Assembly (NCBI GenBank): GCA_963716725.1
Contig: CAVQUB010000005.1
Span: 1 to 64,000 of the forward strand
From: an uncultured delta proteobacterium
GTDB taxonomy: Bacteria; Myxococcota_A; Polyangia; Polyangiales; Polyangiaceae
Direction of reading: 5' to 3'
DNA: 64,000 bases
Positions 9,846 through 59,188 of the stretch are shown here, one piece after another. The position numbers were made by a program, and so were the translations under genes. How positions within the stretch are numbered: the first letter of the stretch is position 1; the number at the start of each line of letters is the position of its first letter. Below the pieces are notes generated by a model. That model was given only the letters and a program-made list of their open reading frames with translations. It ran no database searches and was not told the DNA's origin.

Positions 9846-9873
9846 GTGAGCGTTGGACGATGGTCGGGGGGCC

Positions 9874-10128
9874 ATGTCGTCTCGGACGCAGTCCCACGCC
9901 AAAGAGCTCGAGCGCACCTACGGCGACGGCGAGTGCATCGTCGAAGAGGGGGACCACTCCCGGGACATGTTCGTGATCCAGACCGGACGGGTGCGCATCA
10001 GCAAGAAGGTCGGCGAGCGCCAGGTGGAGCTGGCGACCCTGGAGCGCGGCGACTTCTTCGGGGAGATGTCGCTGCTCGAATCACTGCCGCGCGACGCGAC
10101 GGCGCGCGCCGTGGGTGCCACGGAGCTG
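9874..10128 (+). pseudogene. Truncated cyclic-nucleotide-binding (Crp-like) domain gene, fused in frame to a transposase fragment
   Basis: EEGD...MFVIQTGRVRI...GDFFGEMSLL...PRDATARA cNMP motifs. Confidence 0.8.
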
Positions 10129-11308
10129 CCGCTCGTGCTCGACGGCGTGTACGTGCATCAGGACGACGACCCGAGCGCTCCGCTCGAGTTCCGCGAGCTC
10201 GACACGCCATCGCACGCCGACATCGCGGAGGTCGCGTCACGCACGGCGACACGCATCGAGAAGATCCTGCGCGCGCACGGACGGAGCCTCGACCCCGAGC
10301 TCGACGACGGCTCACCACCCGACCTCGCCCTCGACGAGCCCGGCCTCGCTGCCTGCTACGCCGCTGCGGCCCGGGGCATCTCGGTCAGCGGAGACCGCGC
10401 CGGCCAGCCGCCGCTCCGACTCATCGCGTCGCCGGAGCCACCCGCGCGCCCTCGCGCCGTCGACGCGACCGACCAGCCCATCGTCGACGCGACCGACCAG
10501 CCCATCGCCGAGGTCCGCGGCATCAACATCCACGCCGTGCAGGTCGTGGACGGCCGGGATCGCCGGAGAGTGGAGCGGCTCTGCAAGTACATTACACGCC
10601 CTCCCGTCGCGCAGGACCGCCTCGAGCGCCGCGCGGACGGCAAGCTCGAGCTCGGCTTCAAGCGGGCGTGGCGGGACGGCACGCGCGCGCTCGTGTTCGA
10701 GCCCGCGGACATCATCCCGCGTCTGGTCGCCGCGGTGCCGCCGCCACGATTCCATTTGCTCCGCTACTTCGGCGTCTTGTCGAGCCACTCTTCGCGGCGC
10801 CGGCTCGTCGTCCCGACGCCCACGCGCGACGCGACCGCGAACAAGCCCCCTCCCGCGCGCGGCGATCAGCTCGAGCTGCTCGGCGAGCGGGACGACGCGC
10901 CGGCGCCGCGCAACCGCTGGGCGTGGCTGCTCGCGCATGTCTTCGCCGCCGACGTCGAGACCTGCCCGCGCTGCTCGGGTCCGATGCGCTGGGCCGAGCT
11001 CGCCAAGACGCGCGCGGAGAGCACCCGCTTGCTCGCGGAGCATGGCCTCGGGCCGCGAGCGCCACCGGTCGAGCACGCGAAGGTGCGCGTGCCCGAGCAG
11101 TTGATGTTGGGGTTCGGGGAGGGGTGAGGCGTCGGTGAGCGCCTCGCCGAGGGCGGAGCTGTGTCCTGCGCCGGGCGCGACGCGGAGAAGCTCTGCCGAA
11201 CGGCGCCTTTCGGCCGCCCCGCAGGGGTTCGTGGGCAGCACTCGACCCGACCATCGACGCCGCGTACCCTTCGACTCGGTGGAATTTGGCAGTTCGATTG
11301 CCTTACGC
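10129..11308 (+). mobile_element. IS91/ISCR-family (HUH Y2-type) transposase 3' relic with an oriIS-like end
   Basis: LVLDGVY, ERLCKYITRPPVA..RL, LKR.WRDGT-like, RLVAAVPPPRFHLLRYFGVL, CPRC. End motif GCAGTTCGATTGCCTTACGC (11289-11308) resembles ISCR oriIS. 24-bp tandem duplication at ~10459-10506. Confidence 0.85.
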
Positions 11309-11524
11309 GCCGCTTGTCGTGTGGCCTTTCGTCATCGCGACGATCTCCGCGAAGTCGAGATCGAAGGTCAGCACCGCGCGACCCCCTGCAACGGCCTTCG
11401 CGAAGATATCGCCATTTGGAAGCCGATGGAGCCCCTGGTCACCGAGATGGATTACGTCGTCACCGCGGTCGCGAAGCCATTGGACGACCCGGTGGCTCAC
11501 GCCCATGTCCGCCAAGAAGCGCAC
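11303..11524 (-). pseudogene. DUF5615-type PIN-like toxin, 3'-truncated at the ISCR end
   Basis: MRFLADM..S....WLR..G.DV.H...L...D..IF......R.VLTFDLDF pattern; ends after 73 aa at the element junction. Confidence 0.7.
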
Positions 11525-18919: not shown

Positions 18920-19130
18920 CGCTGGGTGACGTTCGCCGAGCACGACGAGCCTGGGACGACCCTTGGAAGTACCCGGGGGGGTAAGTCCCAGAAGTGGGAG
19001 GAGGTGGTCGAGGCACTCACGACGGACACTCCCAATGAATCGTTCACAGAAAGCGTTCGCCTTCGTCGCCCGCACAGGCGTTTTCAACACCCTCGTGCCG
19101 ACGCCGCGCGCGACGCGGTCGAACTTTCGG
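18920..19130 (-). pseudogene. rve/integrase-core transposase remnant carrying a nested 54-nt insertion
   Basis: VLKTPVRA.KANAFCERFIGSVRRECLDHL...VLGERH. Confidence 0.7.
18945..18998 (+). repeat. 27-nt mini-element, type A nested inside type A (54 nt)
   Basis: ACGAGCCTGGG[ACGACCCTTGGAAGTACCCGGGGGGGT]AAGTCCCAGAAGTGGG. Confidence 0.8.
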
Positions 19131-19410
19131 TCGCGTTGGTTGATCGAGGAGTATTTCAAGGCTCTCAAAACTGGCTGCGACATCGAGAAGCGTCAACTCG
19201 AGAGCTGCAGCACGCTCCTCGTGGCGCTCGGTGTCTTCGTGCCTATCGCGTGGGGTCTGCTCCGCTTGCGTGCGCTCTCCAGAACGGCGCCCGACACCCC
19301 GGCAAATCGAGTCCCCACTCCAACGCAGCTCGACCTGCTTCGGCGGCACCCCAAGGCAAAGATGTCTTCGACCGCGAGCGTGCGCGAAGCGCTGCTCGCA
19401 GTCGCCCCAA
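19130..19410 (+). pseudogene. IS4-family transposase C-terminal remnant
   Basis: RSRWLIEEYFKALKTGC.IEKRQLES, homologous to the C-terminus of 32545-33954. Confidence 0.75.
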
Positions 19411-19463
19411 GCAGCCCAATCGACAGCGGAACCCCGGCTTTTGGCCGTGATACTTTCCGGGTC

Positions 19464-19916
19464 ATGGGTAGACTTGGGCTGGCTCTCCTCGGCATCCTCG
19501 CTCTTGGCTGTACGACGCCACCCCAGGTGCAGATTGCACCAATGGTTTCGGAGGCGCGGGCGAACCAACTGAGTGCGATCGCCCACTACAAAGACGAACG
19601 ATTGGAGGTCACCGGGGTCGTCGTTATTGCCGGCGTTCGCAACGTAGATCGATTCGTCGGCAGCCCGGGGTACGGGAGTTGGACCGTTTCACGCGAGAAC
19701 GTTCAGCACCCATACCTGGAGCTGAGCGATCCCGCAGATGCAACGGGGACCGCTCGGCTCGTCTGCTACTTCCAGCCGAGCATGCTCGAGGAAATTGCCC
19801 CATACACCGCGGGCAGGGCGGTTACGGTCGTGGGGAAGTTTCAGGAATTCACGCCGGGCAGCATGTCCGTCGTCTTGAACTCGTGCCGGCTGCGCGACGG
19901 CGAGTCAGCTCATTGA
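19464..19916 (+). CDS. Putative OB-fold lipoprotein
   Basis: Lipobox ALGC; AN...A...YKD.RLEVTGVV...CYF...G..VTVVG.......V.L.SC pattern. Confidence 0.65.
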   Translation: MGRLGLALLGILALGCTTPPQVQIAPMVSEARANQLSAIAHYKDERLEVTGVVVIAGVRNVDRFVGSPGYGSWTVSRENVQHPYLELSDPADATGTARLVCYFQPSMLEEIAPYTAGRAVTVVGKFQEFTPGSMSVVLNSCRLRDGESAH

Positions 19917-20091: not shown

Positions 20092-20420
20092 TCAGTCGAA
20101 GCGCACCACGCTCGGTGCTGCTGGTTGCGGCGACTGCGAGGGCAGTGCGAATTCCCGGTCGACATCCTCGCTTGGAATTTCGAGCAAATACATGAGAAAG
20201 AGACTGATCTCTCGCAGTCGTGCAACCGCGCCATCCCACGCTCGTTCGAAGCTTCCAGGCATTGCCGGGACGATCGTCGCGAGATTCGCGCTGATCGGGG
20301 CCCGTGTGTGGTCCAGGGTGGCTAGGCACGTGCTGATCAGATGGTAGCCGGCCTCGACTGTCCGGCGAAGTGCCTCGCTTTGCTCTTCCGTCTCGTACGC
20401 AGCGACGAAGACGTTGATCT
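20092..20420 (-). pseudogene. 5'-truncated hypothetical gene cut by the ISCR relic
   Basis: Open frame NVFVAAYETEEQSEALRR...VVRFD* with no clear start, abutting the transposase relic. Confidence 0.35.
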
Positions 20421-20423
20421 CCA

Positions 20424-21763
20424 GCGATCAACGTCCGCCCCTTCGGGCATCGCGAAGCGCGTCACTGCCACGCGCTCGTGCTCGACGGCGTGTACGTGCA
20501 TCAAGACGACGACCCCCGCGCTCCGCTCGAGTTCCTCGAGCTCGACGCGCCTTCCCACGCGGACATCGCCGAGGTGGCGGCGCGCACCGCGGCGCGCATT
20601 GAGAAGATCCTGCGTGAGCACGGCCGAAGCCTTGACCCCGAGCGCGACGACGGCACCCCGCCCGAGCTCGCCCTCGACGACCCTGGGGAATCCTCGACGG
20701 GGGACGAGCCCGGGCTCGCCGCCTGCTACGCCGCCGCGGCGCGAGGCGTCTCCGTCAGCGGCGAACGCGCCGGAAAGCTGCCCCTGCGGCTGATCACCTC
20801 GCCGGAGTCGACCGCGCGCCCACGCGCCGCTGGCGCCACCGACGAGCCCATCGCCGAGGTGCGCGGCATCAACATCCACGCCGCCCAAGCCATCGACGGC
20901 CGCGATCGCCGTCGCGTGGAGCGAATCTGTCAGTACGACCCTTGGAAGTCCCCGACGGGGGACATCACGCGCCCCCCGGTCGCGCAGGACCGCCTCGAGC
21001 GCCGCGCTGACGGCAAGCTCGAACTCAGCTTCAAGCGTGCTTGGCGTGACGACCCTTGGAAGTCCCCGACGGGGGGCGGCACACGCGCGCTGGTCTTCGA
21101 GCCCGCCGACCTCATCCCGCGCCTCGTCGCCGCGGTGCCACCACCTCGCTGGCATTTGTTGCGGTACTTCGGCGTGCTCTCCCTCTTCAGGGACTTCCAA
21201 GGGTCGTCGAGCCACTCGTCGCGACGGCGCCTCGTCGTGCCCACACCGCCGGCGGACGCGACCGCGAACAAGCCTCCGCCAGCCCGCGGCGATCAGCTCG
21301 AGCTACTTGGCGAGAAGGACGACGCGCCGGTGCAGCGCAAACGATGGGCATGGATGCTGGCCATTGTCCCCGCTGCTCCGGTCCAATGCGACGCGCTTCG
21401 CGATACTCGCAGGAGTGCTGGGCCGAGGTCGCAACGACCCGGGCCGCCATCACGCGCTTGCTCTCCGAGCACGACCCTGGGAAGTCCCTGAAGAGGGCCG
21501 GTCTCGGGGCTCGAGCGCCGCCGCCTCAGCACGCGAGCCTCCGCGTGCCCGAGCAGCTCGTGTTGGGGTTCGGGGAAGGGTGAGGCTTCGTCGCGGGACT
21601 CGCCAAGGCGGTGCTCCATGCTCGGTGGCGCCTTCTGCCTCGCAGTGACGGTCCGCAGCGGCAATCAGTGCTCAGCCAGCCGCCCAGACCTGCCTCTCGA
21701 CCTCCAACCGACACGCGCGTACTCTTCGACTCGGTGGGTTTTGGCAGATGGAATTTCCTACGC
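20424..21763 (+). mobile_element. IS91/ISCR-family transposase 3' relic with seven 27-nt insertions and an oriIS-like end
   Basis: Paralogue of 10129-11308, including the HUH motif (HCHALVLDGVY). Insertions at 20436-20462, 20677-20703, 20935-20961, 21049-21075, 21181-21207, 21391-21417, 21471-21497. End motif GCAGATGGAATTTCCTACGC. Confidence 0.85.
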
Positions 21764-21808
21764 GCAGGGAGAACGCGAGCCAGACCGCGCTACCCTGACC
21801 CCTGACCC

Positions 21809-24376: not shown

Positions 24377-24601
24377 ATGCACGCCTTGAAGGCCCAGGTG
24401 AAGAACGGCCGTCTCGTTCTCGACGAACCGACTGATCTGGCGGAAGGCAGGGAGGTCGAGCTTTTCGTCCTGGACGACGAAGAGTTCGCCCCGGAGGAGA
24501 AGGCTCGGTTGCTCCAGGCCATCGAGGACGGGGTCGAAGATTTCGAGCGGGGCGACCACATGGACGGCTTCGAGTTCATCGCCCAGCTACGAGCCAAATG
24601 A
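24377..24601 (+). CDS. Small antitoxin-like protein; partner gene apparently removed by the ISCR fragment
   Basis: LKAQVKNGRLVLDEPTDL.EG.EVEL...L.QAIE....D.ERG; its stop overlaps an ATG at the start of the duplicated ISCR block. Confidence 0.55.
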   Translation: MHALKAQVKNGRLVLDEPTDLAEGREVELFVLDDEEFAPEEKARLLQAIEDGVEDFERGDHMDGFEFIAQLRAK

Positions 24602-25428
24602 GTCGGAGGTCGGAATTCACGCGTTGCACAGCGGTGATCGCGCCGCTCTGGCCTTTGCCCACGCGGTAGAGGTCGCGCATCGTGCGGCGGTAGAAGCCGA
24701 GCACGCTGTCGGCGAACAGTCGCGTGATCCGGCTGAGCAGCTCGCGGTCGTAGGCGACGCGGGCGCGGAGCTCGAACGGCAAGGTGAGAACCCACTGCCT
24801 GAGCGGAGCACGCGACGGCAGAACATGGTCGATCCAATTCGCCGCTGACTCGGCCATCGTTCTGCCCAGGCACGAGGGGCACCATGCGCGTCCCTTGCAA
24901 GAAAACGCGACCAAGAGCTTCGCGCGGCACTTCGGGTCTTGGCATTGAAGAAATCCAAAACCGTGCGCCAGGATTCCGCACTCGAGGTAGCCCTCGAACT
25001 CATCCCTCACGAACGCCGGCAACAGCGCGATGATCTCTTCGGTCTGCGGCGGCTTCGAGCGTGCGGTAGTTCTCGGCGACGACCTGGTAGAAGTCGCTGA
25101 GCTCCGGTCGCCGGCGTCGATATTCGACGCCGCTGCCATCCGAAGTTGCGTCCGAGATCGGCAGCGCGGCGGCCATCGCCGCGCCCGAGCGCACACGGCG
25201 TGCCGACCCCGCCCGGGGCGAGAACGCCGCAAATTACCGTGTTGCAGGCGCTCGGGTGGGTGGCGAAACGCCGGCCGCCGGCGGCGGCCGCCACTGCCCA
25301 CCGCTGCGCGCTACCCCGCCGCCGCCGCGAACCCCAGCGACGCACCCGATTCCGGCGCTCGCATCACCAGCATCAGACGCGTCCGTTCCCTGGCAAGCCA
25401 GGGTCCGAAGCTCGTGAACCACGCCGGC
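24599..25428 (-). mobile_element. Duplicated 5' part of the ISCR-like element (copy of 34414-35242)
   Basis: ~830-nt near-identical repeat containing the zinc-binding region (CG.L.HGF...C...FSCKGR.WCPSC); 1-nt frameshift near 25040. Confidence 0.9.
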
Positions 25429-31514: not shown

Positions 31515-34500
31515 GCATAGGTGAAATGAACGGGGGGTGGTTGGTGAGCTGGCGCGTCTGAACGTCGAATCGGCTGCTGTTGAAGGAGCGAGCAGCGCGC
31601 GGAGCAGTCTCGGCAGTCTCGATTCGCCTCGCGGCGCCATCCTTTTCACCGCTGACACCACCATCGTTCCGGTCTCGGAGAATACCAGGCACACGACCGC
31701 CCTGCACGTCGCGAGCATCGCAATGCATCACTCACCGAACATATCCAGCTGCGGGAGCGAGTCGCTGTCGAGCTCGCCGAACCTCCGGCGCAGCGCCGGG
31801 CTCGTGAAGAACGGCGGTCTTCGCGCTGGCGCGATGGGAGGAGGCTCGGCATCCTCTCCGAGCCTGCGCAGGAAGCGCGTCACGGTCTGGGCCGCAGTGA
31901 CCATCCCCCCGCCGGGGATGCCCCTCCGGGCACTTTCAAGGATCGTCACGAAGCGCGTCGCGCGGAGCAGCATGGGTGCGCCGCACTTGGCACATTTCTC
32001 GCTGTCGATTTTGAAAGTGCGCTTGAGGAGCTCACGCCACGGGCGATAAGTCGAGCGATGCGTCGCCGGTCGTGCGGCGGTGGCGGTCTCATCGTGAATG
32101 TGGGCAGGAGCACGCGCAGGGTTCGTGGTGGCACAGTCGTGCACCGGTGGCGGAGGTGGAGCGACTCTGGTTCTCCAGCGATGAGCTGCAGCGAGCACCC
32201 CCGAGTCCCCCGTCGGGGACTTCCCAGGGTCGTAATGGACGCGATGGGCGCGTGGGGCAGGCACCGAGGCGGCTAGCCGGAGAAGAAACGACAACGGATC
32301 GAGATCGATGGCCGTGGTGCCGTCGGAGAACGGTCGCTTGAGCAGGATGCGACGCGCTTCGCGACGATCCTTGAAAGTGCCCGGAGGGGCATCCCCGAAG
32401 GGGGGCACGAGCCCACTTCCGAGTCGACGCACTCGGTCTTGCGCGAGCGGCGGGCGTAGGACGTACTTGCAGAGGGTTTCGCGAGCACGCGCGTCCTCCC
32501 CCGTCGGGGACTTCCCAGGAGCCGCTTCGGAACACCCGGAGGGCTCATGATTGATCGGATCCCATCTGGGACCGGGCAGCTCGGAAGCCGATCTCGTAGT
32601 CGAGGAGCTTCTGGTAGCCCCGTCCTAACGTTTGCCACCCGGGTGCGCCGTTGTTCTTCAGATGCCCGCCGAGTCGCGCGACAGCGAATAGCGCTTGCTC
32701 AATGGTCTGCGGGACGGCCGGGAGGCGGAGCTTGAACTTTATGAGGAGCAACTGGGGCTCACTCAGGATCGTTGTTGCCGGTTGCTCGGGTGCGACGCGG
32801 GCTAACGAGCGCATGAGCAACAGGCGCCAGGCGATGGGCAGGAACACGGCGAGCGCGTTGCTCAGTGCCTGATACGACTCGAGCTGTCGTTTCTCGAGAG
32901 AACACCCTTGCTTGAGTGCCTTGAAGAACTCTTCGATCACCCACCGACTGCGGTAACAGTCCACGACGGTCGCGAGTTCGGCGACGGTGTCAATGGGTTC
33001 GGTAGTGAGCAGCACCCACTCGACCGACGGCTCGCCTTCTGGTGGTTGGAGTTCCCAGACTCGAACCACGTTGAGTTCGATGCTGCGCGTCTCATGTCGA
33101 GTGTTGCGGGGGCGCAGCACAGTCAAACGTTTGCCTGCCACGGCGACCTCCGCGCTCCGGGCGTTGCGAGACGGGTGCTCTTTTGCAGCATGCGCGCGAC
33201 TGCTCGGTTTCCTCGATGACACCGAGATCGTGCGAAAAAACTGCGGTTCGAGCGTTGAGATTGCACTGCGCAAGCAGATGCCTATTTCCTCAGTTACTCG
33301 GTCGTGAGCCGAACGGATGACGTAGCGCGCACCGAGTTCCTGCGCCTTCGCCAGGACCTCGAAAATGTCCGCTTCGCGGTCCATCACGTGAATGAGCGCG
33401 CTGCCGGGGCAGCGTGCATGGACGGCCTCGAGCATGGCCGGCCAGCGCAGTGATTCGCGCTCGGGGTCTCTCCGACTGACAGACCGGCGGCGCCCGCGTC
33501 CACCCTTGTGTACGAGGCGGACGTGTCGCTGTAGACCCAGAACTCCGAGTGGCACTCGCTCCTCGCCGGGAAGCACGGCCAGCGCCACGTGTGCGAGAAA
33601 CCCCTGGCTGCCGCCGGACGTGACGCCCAACCCAGCTCGCCGACTGGCGCCGCCGAGCGATACTTCGGTCGTATCGTGCGCGACGATACACAGGCCAGCG
33701 GAACTCACACGCTCCACCGTCGCCGACAGGTGCGGGTCAAGGATCTGCTCCGCGTCGAACTGCTCGTTGCGCAGGAATCGGTAGACTCCCTCAAGCTCGG
33801 ACGGAGTGTCGACAGCCTGCGGAAACCCAACACCGGGCGCCGCCATCAGTTTCTCAGCGAGCCAACCGAGCCTGTCACTGCGCCGCTTATCGCCGAGCTG
33901 AGAGCCCTCGAACTCGTCCGAAATCGACCGCCCTAACCATTCTGTTGCCGGCATTTCTCCCGTAGATCACACGCGCCGTCCGCTCGCAATGAGATGTGTT
34001 TGATCATGAGCCGGAGGGGTGGTCCTCGCCGGGAGCCGTGGTGGCCGCATGCACCGAGAAGCCGTCCTCGCGGGCGGCCAGACCGGAAACGGAGAGCTCG
34101 CCGCGATCGGGCAGTGCGATGGCGGGACGCTGCCGATGCTCGGGCCCCGCCGGAGGGTTGCCGGTGACGGCGGCGGTGGCGAGTGCGGCCAGCTCGGGCT
34201 CGCGCTCGGCGAAACCGTCGTCGGTGAGGCAGAGCTCGTTGTCTCGTTCGACGACGCCGCGACGCGCGAGAAAGTCCAAGATGCGCACGCGGGCGGCGTG
34301 CAAGAGATCTGCGACGTCGGAGTTGGAGAGCGCGGGGAGCTGGTGGAAGACGAGGCTCCCGTCATCGGTCTCGAGGAAGACTCCGTCCAACGCGAGCAGG
34401 TGCAGGTGGGGGTTGAGTCGGAGGTCGGAATTCACGCGTTGCACAGCGGTGATCGCGCCGCTCTGGCCTTTGCCCACGCGGTAGAGGTCGCGCATCGTGC

Positions 34501-35242
34501 GGCGGTAGAAGCCGAGCACGCTGTCGGCGAACAGTCGCGTGATCCGGCTGAGCAGCTCGCGGTCGTAGGCGACGCGGGCGCGGAGCTCGAACGGCAAGGT
34601 GAGAACCCACTGCCTGAGCGGAGCACGCGACGGCAGAACATGGTCGATCCAATTCGCCGCTGACTCGGCCATCGTTCTGCCCAGGCACGAGGGGCACCAT
34701 GCGCGTCCCTTGCAAGAAAACGCGACCAAGAGCTTCGCGCGGCACTTCGGGTCTTGGCATTGAAGAAATCCAAAACCGTGCGCCAGGATTCCGCACTCGA
34801 GGTAGCCCTCGAACTCATCCCTCACGAACGCCGGCAACAGCGCGATGATCTCTTGGTCTGCGGCGGCTTCGAGCGTGCGGTAGTTCTCGGCGACGACCTG
34901 GTAGAAGTCGCTGAGCTCCGGTCGCCGGCGTCGATATTCGACGCCGCTGCCATCCGAAGTTGCGTCCGAGATCGGCAGCGCGGCGGCCATCGCCGCGCCC
35001 GAGCGCACACGGCGTGCCGACCCCGCCCGGGGCGAGAACGCCGCAAATTACCGTGTTGCAGGCGCTCGGGTGGGTGGCGAAACGCCGGCCGCCGGCGGCG
35101 GCCGCCACTGCCCACCGCTGCGCGCTACCCCGCCGCCGCCGCGAACCCCAGCGACTCACCCGCTTCCGGCGCTCGCATCACCAGCATCAGACGCGTCCGT
35201 TCCCTGGCAAGCCAGGGTCCGAAGCTCGTGAACCACGCCGGC
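31515..35242 (-). mobile_element. Near full-length IS91/ISCR-family element interrupted by IS4 and four mini-insertion sites
   Basis: N-half 34027-35008 (FSCKGR.WCPSC, RQWVLTLP, LRLNPHLHLLALDG = HUH). C-half 31728-32497 (ETLCKYVLRPPLA, KRPFSDGT, CAKCG). oriIS-like GTTCATTTCACCTATGC at ~31518-31534. Confidence 0.85.
32544..34010 (-). mobile_element. Intact IS4-family (IS50/Tn5-like) insertion sequence, 1467 bp; transposase 32545-33954
   Basis: Terminal IRs CTCATGAT; 8-bp target duplication CCGGAGGG at 32536-32543 and 34011-34018; LGDKRR, HDTT, MDREAD and YRSRWVIEEFFKALK (YREK) motifs. Confidence 0.92.
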
Positions 35243-58299: not shown

Positions 58300-59188
58300 A
58301 TGTTCGCGCGCTGGTTCTGCTCCTGCTCCGCTGTCGTGCTCGTCGTGACGCGCTTCGCGACGATCCTGGAAAGTCCCCGGAGGGGGATACCCGACGGGGT
58401 GGGGCAGGCATGGGCGGCCGAATCGGGGATTCGATCCCGAGTCACCGGCCGAGTCGACGCCTGCGCCTGCGCCTGCGCCCGCGACGACGGCGGATCCGCC
58501 GTACGCAGCCTGGCAAGGCTCGGGTCACGCCCCACCCGACGGCTACTCACCCGGATCGATTCCGGCGCCAGCGGTCGGCGCACCCATCTACGCGCGTCGA
58601 ACGGTCGAGCTCATCCCCGCGCTTGGCGTCGCCCTGGCGAACTGTCGCGCCGGCTCCCGCTCCGACAACCGCTGTGATGGCGTCGGCGGCGGCGGCATCG
58701 TCGGGTTCACCGGGCTCTGGCGAGTCACGCCCTACTTCGCGTGGGGTGGCGGCTTCGAGGTCGCGGCGTTCCGCAATCGACCCTCCGAGGAGAGTGAGCT
58801 CTCCGACGCGAGCGCTGCGGCCGTGTGGCTCGGGCTGATCGGTCGGGTGTATTTCAACGACGAAGGCGCCCTCGATCCCTACGTGCAACTCGCCATCGGC
58901 GTCGGTGCGCTCGGCACGCAGGCGACCGATCCGGCGGACGTCACCTGGGAGGAGACCGGCGCCGGACCCGCGGCACAAATTGGCGGGGGCCTCGACTTCC
59001 ACCTTTCGCGATCGCTTCGGCTCGGTCCGTCGCTGACCTACACACGGGTGTTCGTGGACAAGATCCGACGCTGTCAGGCCTCGGGCGGCGGCAAGTGCGA
59101 GGACGTGTCGAAGGACGACGACGGTCACTTGAACTCACACCTGACGCTGGCCGCTCGCCTGACCATCACTCTGGGGGGGGAGCACTGA
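58300..59188 (+). CDS. Secreted/outer-membrane beta-barrel-like protein with a 54-nt insertion in its signal peptide and a +1 frameshift near 58428
   Basis: MFARWFCSCSAVVLVV[18-aa insert]GQAWAAESG, continuing in the next frame as FDPESPAES...DPYVQLAIG...LTITLGGEH*. Confidence 0.6.
58348..58401 (+). repeat. 27-nt mini-element, type A nested inside type B (54 nt)
   Basis: ACGCGCTTCGCG[ACGATCCTGGAAAGTCCCCGGAGGGGG]ATACCCGACGGGGTG; same composite as 31905-31958 and 32352-32405. Confidence 0.85.

Follow-up and report, generated by a model that had tools for sequence, protein, structure and literature searches.

A 64,000-nt stretch of contig CAVQUB010000005.1 (assembly GCA_963716725.1, an uncultured member of the Polyangiaceae), referred to here as the window, carries a relic of an IS91/ISCR-type transposase gene, designated copy B, that contains seven blocks of 27 nt. 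The blocks are copies of two families of mobile 27-nt repeats, each built of a box and a hairpin and without an enzyme of their own, and the analysis supports, at the level of pattern, a real preference of these 27-mers for the IS91-type transposon family. The best explanation overall, which is considered probable, is that they are enzyme-less mobile hairpins that prefer IS91-type DNA and are tolerated within living transposase genes. Insert sites in copy B are termed S0-S6, labels such as C12:54402 give contig and position in this assembly, and the features are collected in Table 1.

The seven blocks of copy B are insertions

Copy B was compared by pairwise MAFFT alignment (20400-21600 vs. 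10100-11140, mean column identity 83%) with an insert-free paralogue in the window, copy A, and the row of copy A contains five clean 27-column gaps, at S1, S2, S3, S4, and S6. Site S5 is blurred in this alignment, because copy B has a 25-nt deletion just upstream, and is clean in an alignment of 14 copies, so that the six clean gains of the original prediction are all recovered. A seventh insert had been placed immediately before the HCH of the HUH motif (read at 20463-20471), and S0 is indeed a clean 27-nt gain relative to four full-length copies; only ∼15 nt of homologous upstream flank are left at this site, and metagenome contigs that join ...CTCAACGTC straight to position 20463 fit its boundary. 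In the 14-row alignment, some rows of which are partial, all seven sites are empty in the A-type rows (n = 7, four of which cover S0) and in the distant copy C16 wherever these are covered. Conversely, two further sites, S1b and S5', are occupied in other copies and vacant in copy B. The empty-site control therefore works in both directions, and misalignment is excluded. The repeat core GACCCTKGGRANTCC occurs seven times in the window, compared with 0.08 expected, and none of 100 shuffles reached this number.

The logic of using copy A as an empty site is thus sound, and the blocks are insertions of dispersed repeats, but copy A is not an equal control. The A-type copies that were compared are 99.7-99.8% identical to one another and therefore represent a recent burst. 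Judging by these sequences, copy A appears to be empty because its lineage either multiplied very recently into near-identical copies or is a newcomer. A 24-nt tandem duplication is present in A-type copies, including copy A (∼10463-10510), and copy A is fused in one 424-aa open frame with a cNMP-binding open reading frame (ORF; window 9853-11127), the junction being directly past the HUH position.

Two other readings of the blocks were rejected. That they are ancestral segments deleted from copy A does not agree with their membership of a dispersed family, nor with the finding that 94 of 98 public homologues of at least 440 aa are without such an insert. Translational bypassing was considered for the GAC codons that often flank the inserts, and no stop or other bypass signal was seen.

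Copy B itself is broken by a 5' truncation just upstream of the HUH motif and by the 25-nt deletion, which shifts the frame near 21359 (alignment against C12). ORF pieces remain at 20478-21491 and 21056-21583, and the right end of the element, ...TTTCCTACGCGCA, lies ∼183 nt past the stop at 21583. The deletion (window 21359-21360) spans S5', the site that is filled in other copies, and it may represent the imprecise loss of an insert.

Two families of box-plus-hairpin repeats

In both families, a conserved box of 11-13 nt precedes a hairpin in which a stem of 5-6 bp carries a G..G tetraloop (family 1, box GAyCCTkGrAA and 6-bp stem; family 2, box ACGCGCTkCGyGA and 5-bp stem), and the consensus sequences of both are free of stop codons in all six frames. 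Iterative scanning and excision yielded 227 candidates. A strict hairpin filter retains 169 of them, and the strict count of the first round was 145 in the genome vs. 2 in the reversed genome. The repeats are found in intergenic DNA, inside one another, in tandem arrays of 2-9 identical units, and in frame within genes. Nesting is clean and always occurs between box and hairpin, and excision of simple copies in silico restored 25 further host elements.

Conservation of the hairpin was evident from covariation in sets picked by the box alone, where paired cells number 204 of 300 in family 1 (164.8 ± 6.1 after shuffling, with none of 1000 shuffles reaching the observed value) and 172 of 255 in family 2 (136.1 ± 5.4, again above all 1000 shuffles). 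Family 1 targets GA (57 of its 67 sites have A at −1, and 51 have G at −2), and family 2 targets CG, with G at −1 in 34 of 36 sites. At 53 of 67 family-1 and 29 of 36 family-2 sites, the flanking base is identical to the final base of the repeat, reflecting either a 1-2-nt repeat or a mere target preference, and no convincing terminal inverted repeat was seen in the 27-mers. Since family 1 lands within GA/C, most of its forward copies read in frame as D-PWKSPTG-D.

The family-1 16-mer occurs 77 times in this genome, 3-13 times in five of six other genomes of the genus, and, outside the genus, five times in a single further genus of the same family; it is absent from the other 33 genomes searched, and a reversed control pattern was absent everywhere. 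A third 27-nt family, outside this catalogue, consists of the hairpin ACACCC-TTCG-GGTGT followed by TCCGCAGCGGCTC and is nested in family-1 copies; it was seen at L065 (G005:C42), window 32524-32543/34011-34021, and C3:262941. Separately, P0023, an IS91-type protein from an Anaeromyxobacteraceae metagenome bin, has DAAKSPAGD at the site of the C12 insert DPWKSQKWD, and related inserts may therefore extend past the genus.

Most inserts of copy B are shared with other copies

Inserts S2-S4 are common to copy B, C12:55032, and C13:87112, and S3 and S4 also to C13:92521, within a clade with a support of 0.99. On this sequence evidence, S2, S3, and S4 appear to have been gained before the B-type copies diverged. 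Site S6 is filled in copy B and in fragments on C10, C1, and C34, and S5 in copy B and the C1 fragment, while S0 and S1 are private to copy B. Because S2-S4, and also S5 and S6, are shared with other copies, copy B is not a relic that collected its inserts hit by hit; it inherited at least three of the seven, and probably five.

Site S1 is young enough to be polymorphic in nature. Contigs of the sequencing runs X2 and X6 skip exactly 27 nt at 20676 and have 1 and 2 other differences, counted over the matched stretches only. These S1-empty contigs come from two independent metagenome studies, of a biofilter and of wastewater, and S1 is filled in a groundwater run. The RNA run X16 matched copy B by a single contig, at 20466-20613.

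Insert-bearing transposases were living hosts

The intact 569-aa ORF at C12:54402-56111 contains six inserts and shares S2, S3, and S4 with copy B. It matches both Zn_Tnp_IS91 (PF14319, E 3.4e-15) and Y2_Tnp (PF04986, E 4.8e-08), while copies A and B match PF04986 only because they are truncated. Among 62 aligned proteins, H207 and H209, which we take to be the HUH motif, are invariant, and Y364, presumably the catalytic tyrosine, is nearly so; all three are present in the C12 ORF. Its best public homologues are 515 aa in length, that is, 569 minus 54. A full-length relative matches NCBIfam NF052416 (ISCR clade Ia) over its full length with an E value of 2.8e-59 and with 201 bits vs. a cut-off of 925, and hence the host gene is ISCR-like and not a member of ISCR clade Ia.

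The insert-bearing copies diverged under purifying selection, as the ratio of nonsynonymous to synonymous substitution (dN/dS) is 0.11-0.13, at a dS of 0.31-0.50, among three long copies that share S2-S4. At least five such copies or fragments are present in this genome, and others in two sister species. The sister-species copy L007 has S2 in common with copy B, C12:55493, and C13:87712, and carries a different hairpin variant at S3 and a different family-2 variant at S5. Besides the C12 ORF, there is thus a second open copy, in a sister species, with four family-1 matches and a family-2 insert at S5. In an AlphaFold2 model of the C12 transposase (pLDDT 76.6, pTM 0.79), six of six inserts lie between predicted helices or strands, the chance of which is ∼0.02 by rough arithmetic, with about half of the non-insert residues in helices or strands.

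Inserts also lie in frame in ordinary genes. A gene for an ArsA-like ATPase contains one 27-mer in genome G000 and 54 nt at the same spot in G005, the latter being a decayed copy with a 27-mer of the third family nested inside. The site is empty in G001, G002, G003, and G004 (four of six sister genomes, the sixth being uninformative), and every ORF is open. Further sites within genes were found in CBM9, RCC1-repeat, ACT-domain, and TPR proteins; the last of these sites (C5:287503-287718, L004:1504-1719) comprises eight tandem 27-nt units, or 72 residues, in frame within a 729-aa ORF in unique DNA.

Table 1. Positions of the transposase copies, 27-nt inserts, and associated elements (window coordinates unless a contig is given).
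Feature	Position	Strand	Remarks
Copy A, insert-free C-terminal part of A-type transposase	10129..11315	+	Pfam Y2_Tnp; begins directly after HUH motif
Copy B, IS91/ISCR-type transposase relic	∼20420..21766	+	Pfam Y2_Tnp; end set by alignment of 14 copies
S0, family-2 27-mer, box ACGCGCTTCGCGA + hairpin TGCCC-GAAG-GGGCG	20436..20462	-	Copy B only
S1, family-1 27-mer, somewhat decayed	20678..20704	+	Copy B only; polymorphic in nature
S2, family-1 27-mer	20936..20962	+	Right behind nearly invariant Tyr codon (KY/IT)
S3, family-1 27-mer with rare ...GGGGGG end	21050..21076	+	In four copies of this genome
S4, family-1 27-mer, GAAG loop	21180..21206	-	In four copies
S5, family-2 27-mer	21391..21417	+	Also in fragment C1:113010
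S6, family-1 27-mer	21472..21498	+	Also in fragments C10:8694, C1:113092, and C34:147323
Second, distantly related IS91-type element	31728..35008	-	N-half 34004-35008, C-half 31728-32501
IS4/Tn5-like insertion sequence splitting the second IS91-type element	32544-34010		
N-terminal fragment of the second element type	24600..25194	-	98-99% aa identity
Nested pair of family-1 27-mers, outside IS91-like DNA	18946..18999	+	Paralogous copy at C1:138190
Family-2 27-mer with family-1 27-mer nested between its box and hairpin	58348..58401	+	DNA called noncoding
Copies of the IS4/Tn5-like insertion sequence	window 32544-34010; C10:8838-10345; C1:162397; C4:160292; C5:676864; C13:84032; C13:288498; C24:1779; C34:147323		
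Arrays by the 489-aa ORF (locus L001)	C5:605041-605229; C2:193796; C3:37334; C6:47677; C21:51031; C33:25634		

Inserts are concentrated in IS91-like DNA

Genome-wide, 107 clusters of inserts were reduced by flank identity to 79 site groups, from which four false positives (leaving 75) and two duplicates (leaving 73) were removed. IS91-like DNA, as defined by tblastn, amounts to 24,384 bp or 0.31% of the genome and contains 18 of the 75 site groups (16 of 73 after merging), which is 87-fold more than expected from a uniform distribution (binomial p 7e-30). The corresponding values are 3.9-fold for other repeated DNA (14 site groups), and, in unique DNA, 0.2-fold where it is called coding (nine), 0.8-fold at gene edges (16), and 1.5-fold where it is called noncoding (18). 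With the same classifier, in which non-mobile pseudogenes do not form a class of their own, the density is 0.83 per kb in IS91-like DNA vs. 0.014 per kb in unique noncoding DNA, or ∼60 times higher. The recurrent young repeats of insertion sequence (IS) type (∼1.1, 1.3, 1.8, and 3.3 kb, and a 1.5-kb IS4-like one) contain no internal inserts and are a weak control because they are recent.

The preference also extends to the type of insert, as the GACG-loop variant of family 1 has seven sites in IS91 DNA and seven elsewhere, whereas the remaining family-1 variants have 6 and 43 (Fisher p 0.005). Within the window, the four sites reported for a second IS91-type element are present, at 31905-31958 and 32352-32405 (both nested pairs), 32206-32232, and 32497-32523, together with a hairpin of the third family (32524-32543/34011-34021) that was split by insertion of an IS4-like element. 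The core genes had been credited with a single site, and the window in fact contains two outside IS91-like DNA, both of them nested pairs (Table 1).

Resident inserts are invariant, and some sites recur

Between C12 and C13:87112, the four elements that they share (108 nt) do not differ at a single position, whereas their flanks (±60 nt) differ at 64 of 463; the chance of this is ∼1e-7 by our own arithmetic. In general, shared inserts are unchanged where flanks differ by 6-14%. Rare variants are shared site by site, as four copies have the ...GGGGGG end at S3 and two have GACCCCTGG at S1b. These argue for descent, and recency therefore does not explain the invariance, which instead requires either that selection acts on the hairpin or that the inserts undergo templated correction.

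Certain sites are filled in copies that are not closely related. The sister-species copy L007 lies outside the B clade (node support 0.36) and is filled at S2, S3, S5, and S5', with different variants occupying S3 and S5. At S5', another copy carries an insert that its sister, C16, lacks, and in G001 a distant IS91 type has an insert at a site homologous to S2 that is vacant in the window. The simplest explanation of the recurrence is that the flux of insertion is high and that selection favors a small number of permissive loops.

Weighing the explanations

The relaxed-selection explanation offered in the original prediction is that 27-mers insert at random and persist in copy B and its kin as dead and neutral DNA, with copy A having escaped by chance. 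It is in keeping with the truncation and deletion of copy B, with the private state of S0 and S1 and the recent date of S1, and with the avoidance of coding sequence in unique DNA (0.2-fold), from which it follows that selection filters insertions. As the main cause of the pattern it fails, however, since three of the seven inserts, S2-S4, reside also in the intact 569-aa ORF, the copies with common inserts show a dN/dS of 0.11-0.13, IS91-like DNA is far more densely filled than unique noncoding DNA (0.83 vs. 0.014 per kb), and other IS-type repeats have no internal inserts; it is quite improbable. Even less probable, and in our view very unlikely, is the further proposal that the inserts are a means of disabling mobile elements, whereby the host or the repeat system would target foreign rolling-circle DNA as a defense. 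While the strong enrichment in IS91-type genes, the position of S2 directly behind the nearly invariant Tyr364, and the recent multiplication of the insert-free A lineage are what such a defense would predict, the inserts are multiples of three in length (27 nt) and stop-free in all six frames, the ORFs in C12 and in the sister-species copy are open, purifying selection went on, and the insert-bearing copies multiplied, to at least five in this genome as well as in two sister species. Preferential targeting, which had been suggested alongside relaxed selection, holds as a pattern (16 of 73 sites in 0.31% of the genome), but its proposed basis in exposed single-stranded DNA (ssDNA) is inferred, and the mixed orientation of the inserts (11/7) does not favor it.

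The recurring sites could instead mean that the same positions in IS91 are hit, precisely vacated, and hit again, such that shared sites would be neither inherited nor datable. Such hot spots with turnover, which are unlikely although less so than relaxed selection, would account for the filled sites and different variants of L007, for the S5' site with its empty sister, for the filled S2-homologous site of the distant IS91 type, and for inserts that are invariant amid diverging flanks. Within the genome, however, the rare variants shared site by site fit descent, a coincidence at one site between distant clades is not improbable (∼0.1 per insertion by a rough estimate), and selection for permissive loops accounts for the recurring sites with no need for a specific target.

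Clean insertion, mobility, and enrichment are counted here as established, as are tolerance and selection, and several points weigh against the favored explanation built on them, that of mobile hairpins preferring and tolerated by IS91-type genes. The inserts in IS91 genes are mixed in orientation, with 11 in the same and 7 in the opposite direction to the gene, which is not what a model based on one strand of ssDNA predicts. The families were defined on IS91 copies first, so that the count of mini-families elsewhere may be too low and the enrichment too high. The coding classifier has a low sensitivity, calling only 52% of random positions coding; the assembly is 84% complete and in 35 contigs, and chimeric IS copies could distort both the copy matrix and dN/dS; and the low-confidence loops in the structural model are due in part to alignment gaps at the insert positions. 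In addition, no enzyme that mobilizes the 27-mers was found in this genome, its sole clear Y1 gene is flanked by unique hairpins of its own rather than by 27-mers, and the 27-mers are unlike either end of the IS91-type elements.

A proposed mechanism and candidate movers

In the mechanism that we propose, 27-mers would insert widely, with the IS91/ISCR transposase gene as by far their densest habitat. A high flux of insertion might be directed into the ssDNA of rolling-circle transposition, or the IS91 HUH transposase might mobilize the repeats near its own gene, and selection would then leave only those inserts that landed at permissive sites. The survivors would have settled between elements of secondary structure, where nine added residues can be tolerated and the gene would stay open and under purifying selection, and they would be carried along as the transposon multiplies. 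Hence the preference for IS91 is most likely tied to the ssDNA stage or the HUH enzyme and filtered by selection for tolerated sites, the link itself being inferred. A stronger version, which is rather doubtful but marginally less so than the hot spots, is that the 27-mers are hitch-hikers of IS91/ISCR, parasites of a parasite that are moved by the HUH enzyme or through ssDNA, settle in permissive loops of the transposase gene, travel between genomes with the transposon, and are kept letter-perfect there by selection or templated correction. If true, it would explain how inserts are unchanged amid codons that diverged by 6-14%.

Three candidates for a mover or parent were considered and rejected. 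A RAYT is one, as PF01797 detects two places in the genome; the clear Y1 (IS200/RAYT-like) gene, at C5:165574-165909, has none of these repeats in its flanks; two pairs of inverted hairpins enclose it instead, and these are unique in the assembly. Another is a miniature IS91, and the aligned ends of the IS91-type copies, right (...GGCAGTTCGATTGCCTTACGCGC) and left, are unlike the 27-mers, the sole overlap being ACGCGC, which the right end has in common with the beginning of the family-2 repeat and which is too short to count. The third is an IS4/Tn5-like IS of 1.47 kb encoding a 469-aa transposase with Tnp_DNA_bind, DDE_Tnp_1, and Dimer_Tnp_Tn5 domains. Its terminal likeness to the repeats stems from its insertion into repeat hairpins, as it sits in one (...GAAGGG/CTCATGAT...) at each junction inspected. 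The copy in the window split the second IS91-type gene by landing in a pre-existing repeat, and at C34:147323 the S6 hairpin was itself hit.

Tandem arrays of 2-7 identical family-1 units, variable in length between copies, precede by ∼80 nt a 489-aa ORF whose HNH signal is weak (Pfam 21.1 bits, below the cut-off; NCBIfam IscB E 0.0015, 17.8 bits vs. a cut-off of 175) and which has no sequence match in the PDB. They are part of a ∼3.45-kb repeat, present at 8-9 places, that also carries an IS5-like DUF772/DDE transposase. It is possible that this array-bearing repeat with its 489-aa ORF is the source or the mover of the 27-mers.

Relation to known repeats and significance

The closest parallel in size may be the SDRs of heterocystous cyanobacteria, which, as reportedly described by Elhai et al. 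in 2008, are 21-27 nt long with a shared fold, compensatory changes, nesting, and no known enzyme. The 27-mers resemble them, by that description, in size class, in a shared fold with compensatory changes, and in clean nesting, and differ in belonging to another phylum and presumably in sequence. To our knowledge, SDRs have not been described as having a habitat in transposon genes, residing in frame in intact genes, or having invariant resident copies. At 27 bases, an enzyme-less mobile DNA comes close to the smallest size of any known mobile element.

REPs and REPINs are described as GC-rich hairpins with a conserved one-sided head that are mobilized by RAYT, an HUH enzyme of the Y1 type (PMC3116915, PMC2817692, PMC3333891, PMC3733652), and REPs are also described as targets of IS elements (PMC1525189). 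The 27-mers are similarly short and GC-rich, with a conserved box and hairpin, compensatory changes, and tens to hundreds of dispersed copies in a restricted lineage, and their hairpins likewise serve as an IS target, here for the IS4-like element. Unlike the extragenic REPs, however, they have 16 of 73 site groups in IS91-type genes and nine in other DNA called coding; where REPINs are inverted doublets, they occur as tandem arrays of direct repeats and as nested copies; they do not flank the only Y1 gene in this genome, as REPs flank RAYT; and they lack a GTAG or CGTC head. Rickettsia palindromic elements (RPE), of ∼150 bp, are described as lying in frame in protein-coding genes, where they are tolerated as an extra peptide (PMC10969869). 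The 27-mers are also palindromic, in frame, and tolerated as added peptide, but RPEs occur in metabolic genes of an obligate intracellular host, whereas the 27-mers add nine residues, are centered on transposases, and reside in a myxobacterium of the free-living type. Miniature IS91 elements differ in turn, as the 27-mers share neither end with the resident IS91-type elements. In the literature covered, mostly abstracts and without supplements, there was no report of such repeats in myxobacteria or enriched in IS91 genes, nor of a transposase gene in which mini-repeats are concentrated, tolerated, and conserved.

The system is a natural experiment in which one transposon family holds about a fifth of the sites, and filled and empty alleles of one gene are available within a genome, in sister species, and in public metagenomes, together with an intact transposase gene with six inserts. 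It makes testable whether an HUH rolling-circle transposase or its ssDNA intermediate mobilizes mini-elements, and why repeated additions of nine residues, one of them beside the catalytic tyrosine, are tolerated and even conserved. It also calls for caution in annotation, since in genomes of the Polyangiaceae type an in-frame repeat of 27 nt represents an insertion rather than a native segment of the protein.

Other observations

The N-terminal fragment of the second element type contains no 27-mer according to the repeat scans of this analysis, and the ORF at 18963-19916, close to the nested pair of family-1 27-mers, has no Pfam match. At C13:110108-114477 and C8:414320-417061, partial A-type copies are arranged head-to-tail with a spacing of ∼1,180 nt, each restarting within the transposase gene ∼70 nt past the IS right end, an arrangement that rolling-circle read-through or one-ended transposition may have left behind. 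An array of 38 exact copies of a ∼29-nt repeat with CRISPR-like spacing is located at C3:186756-187800, and the underlying 13-mers number up to ∼118 genome-wide.

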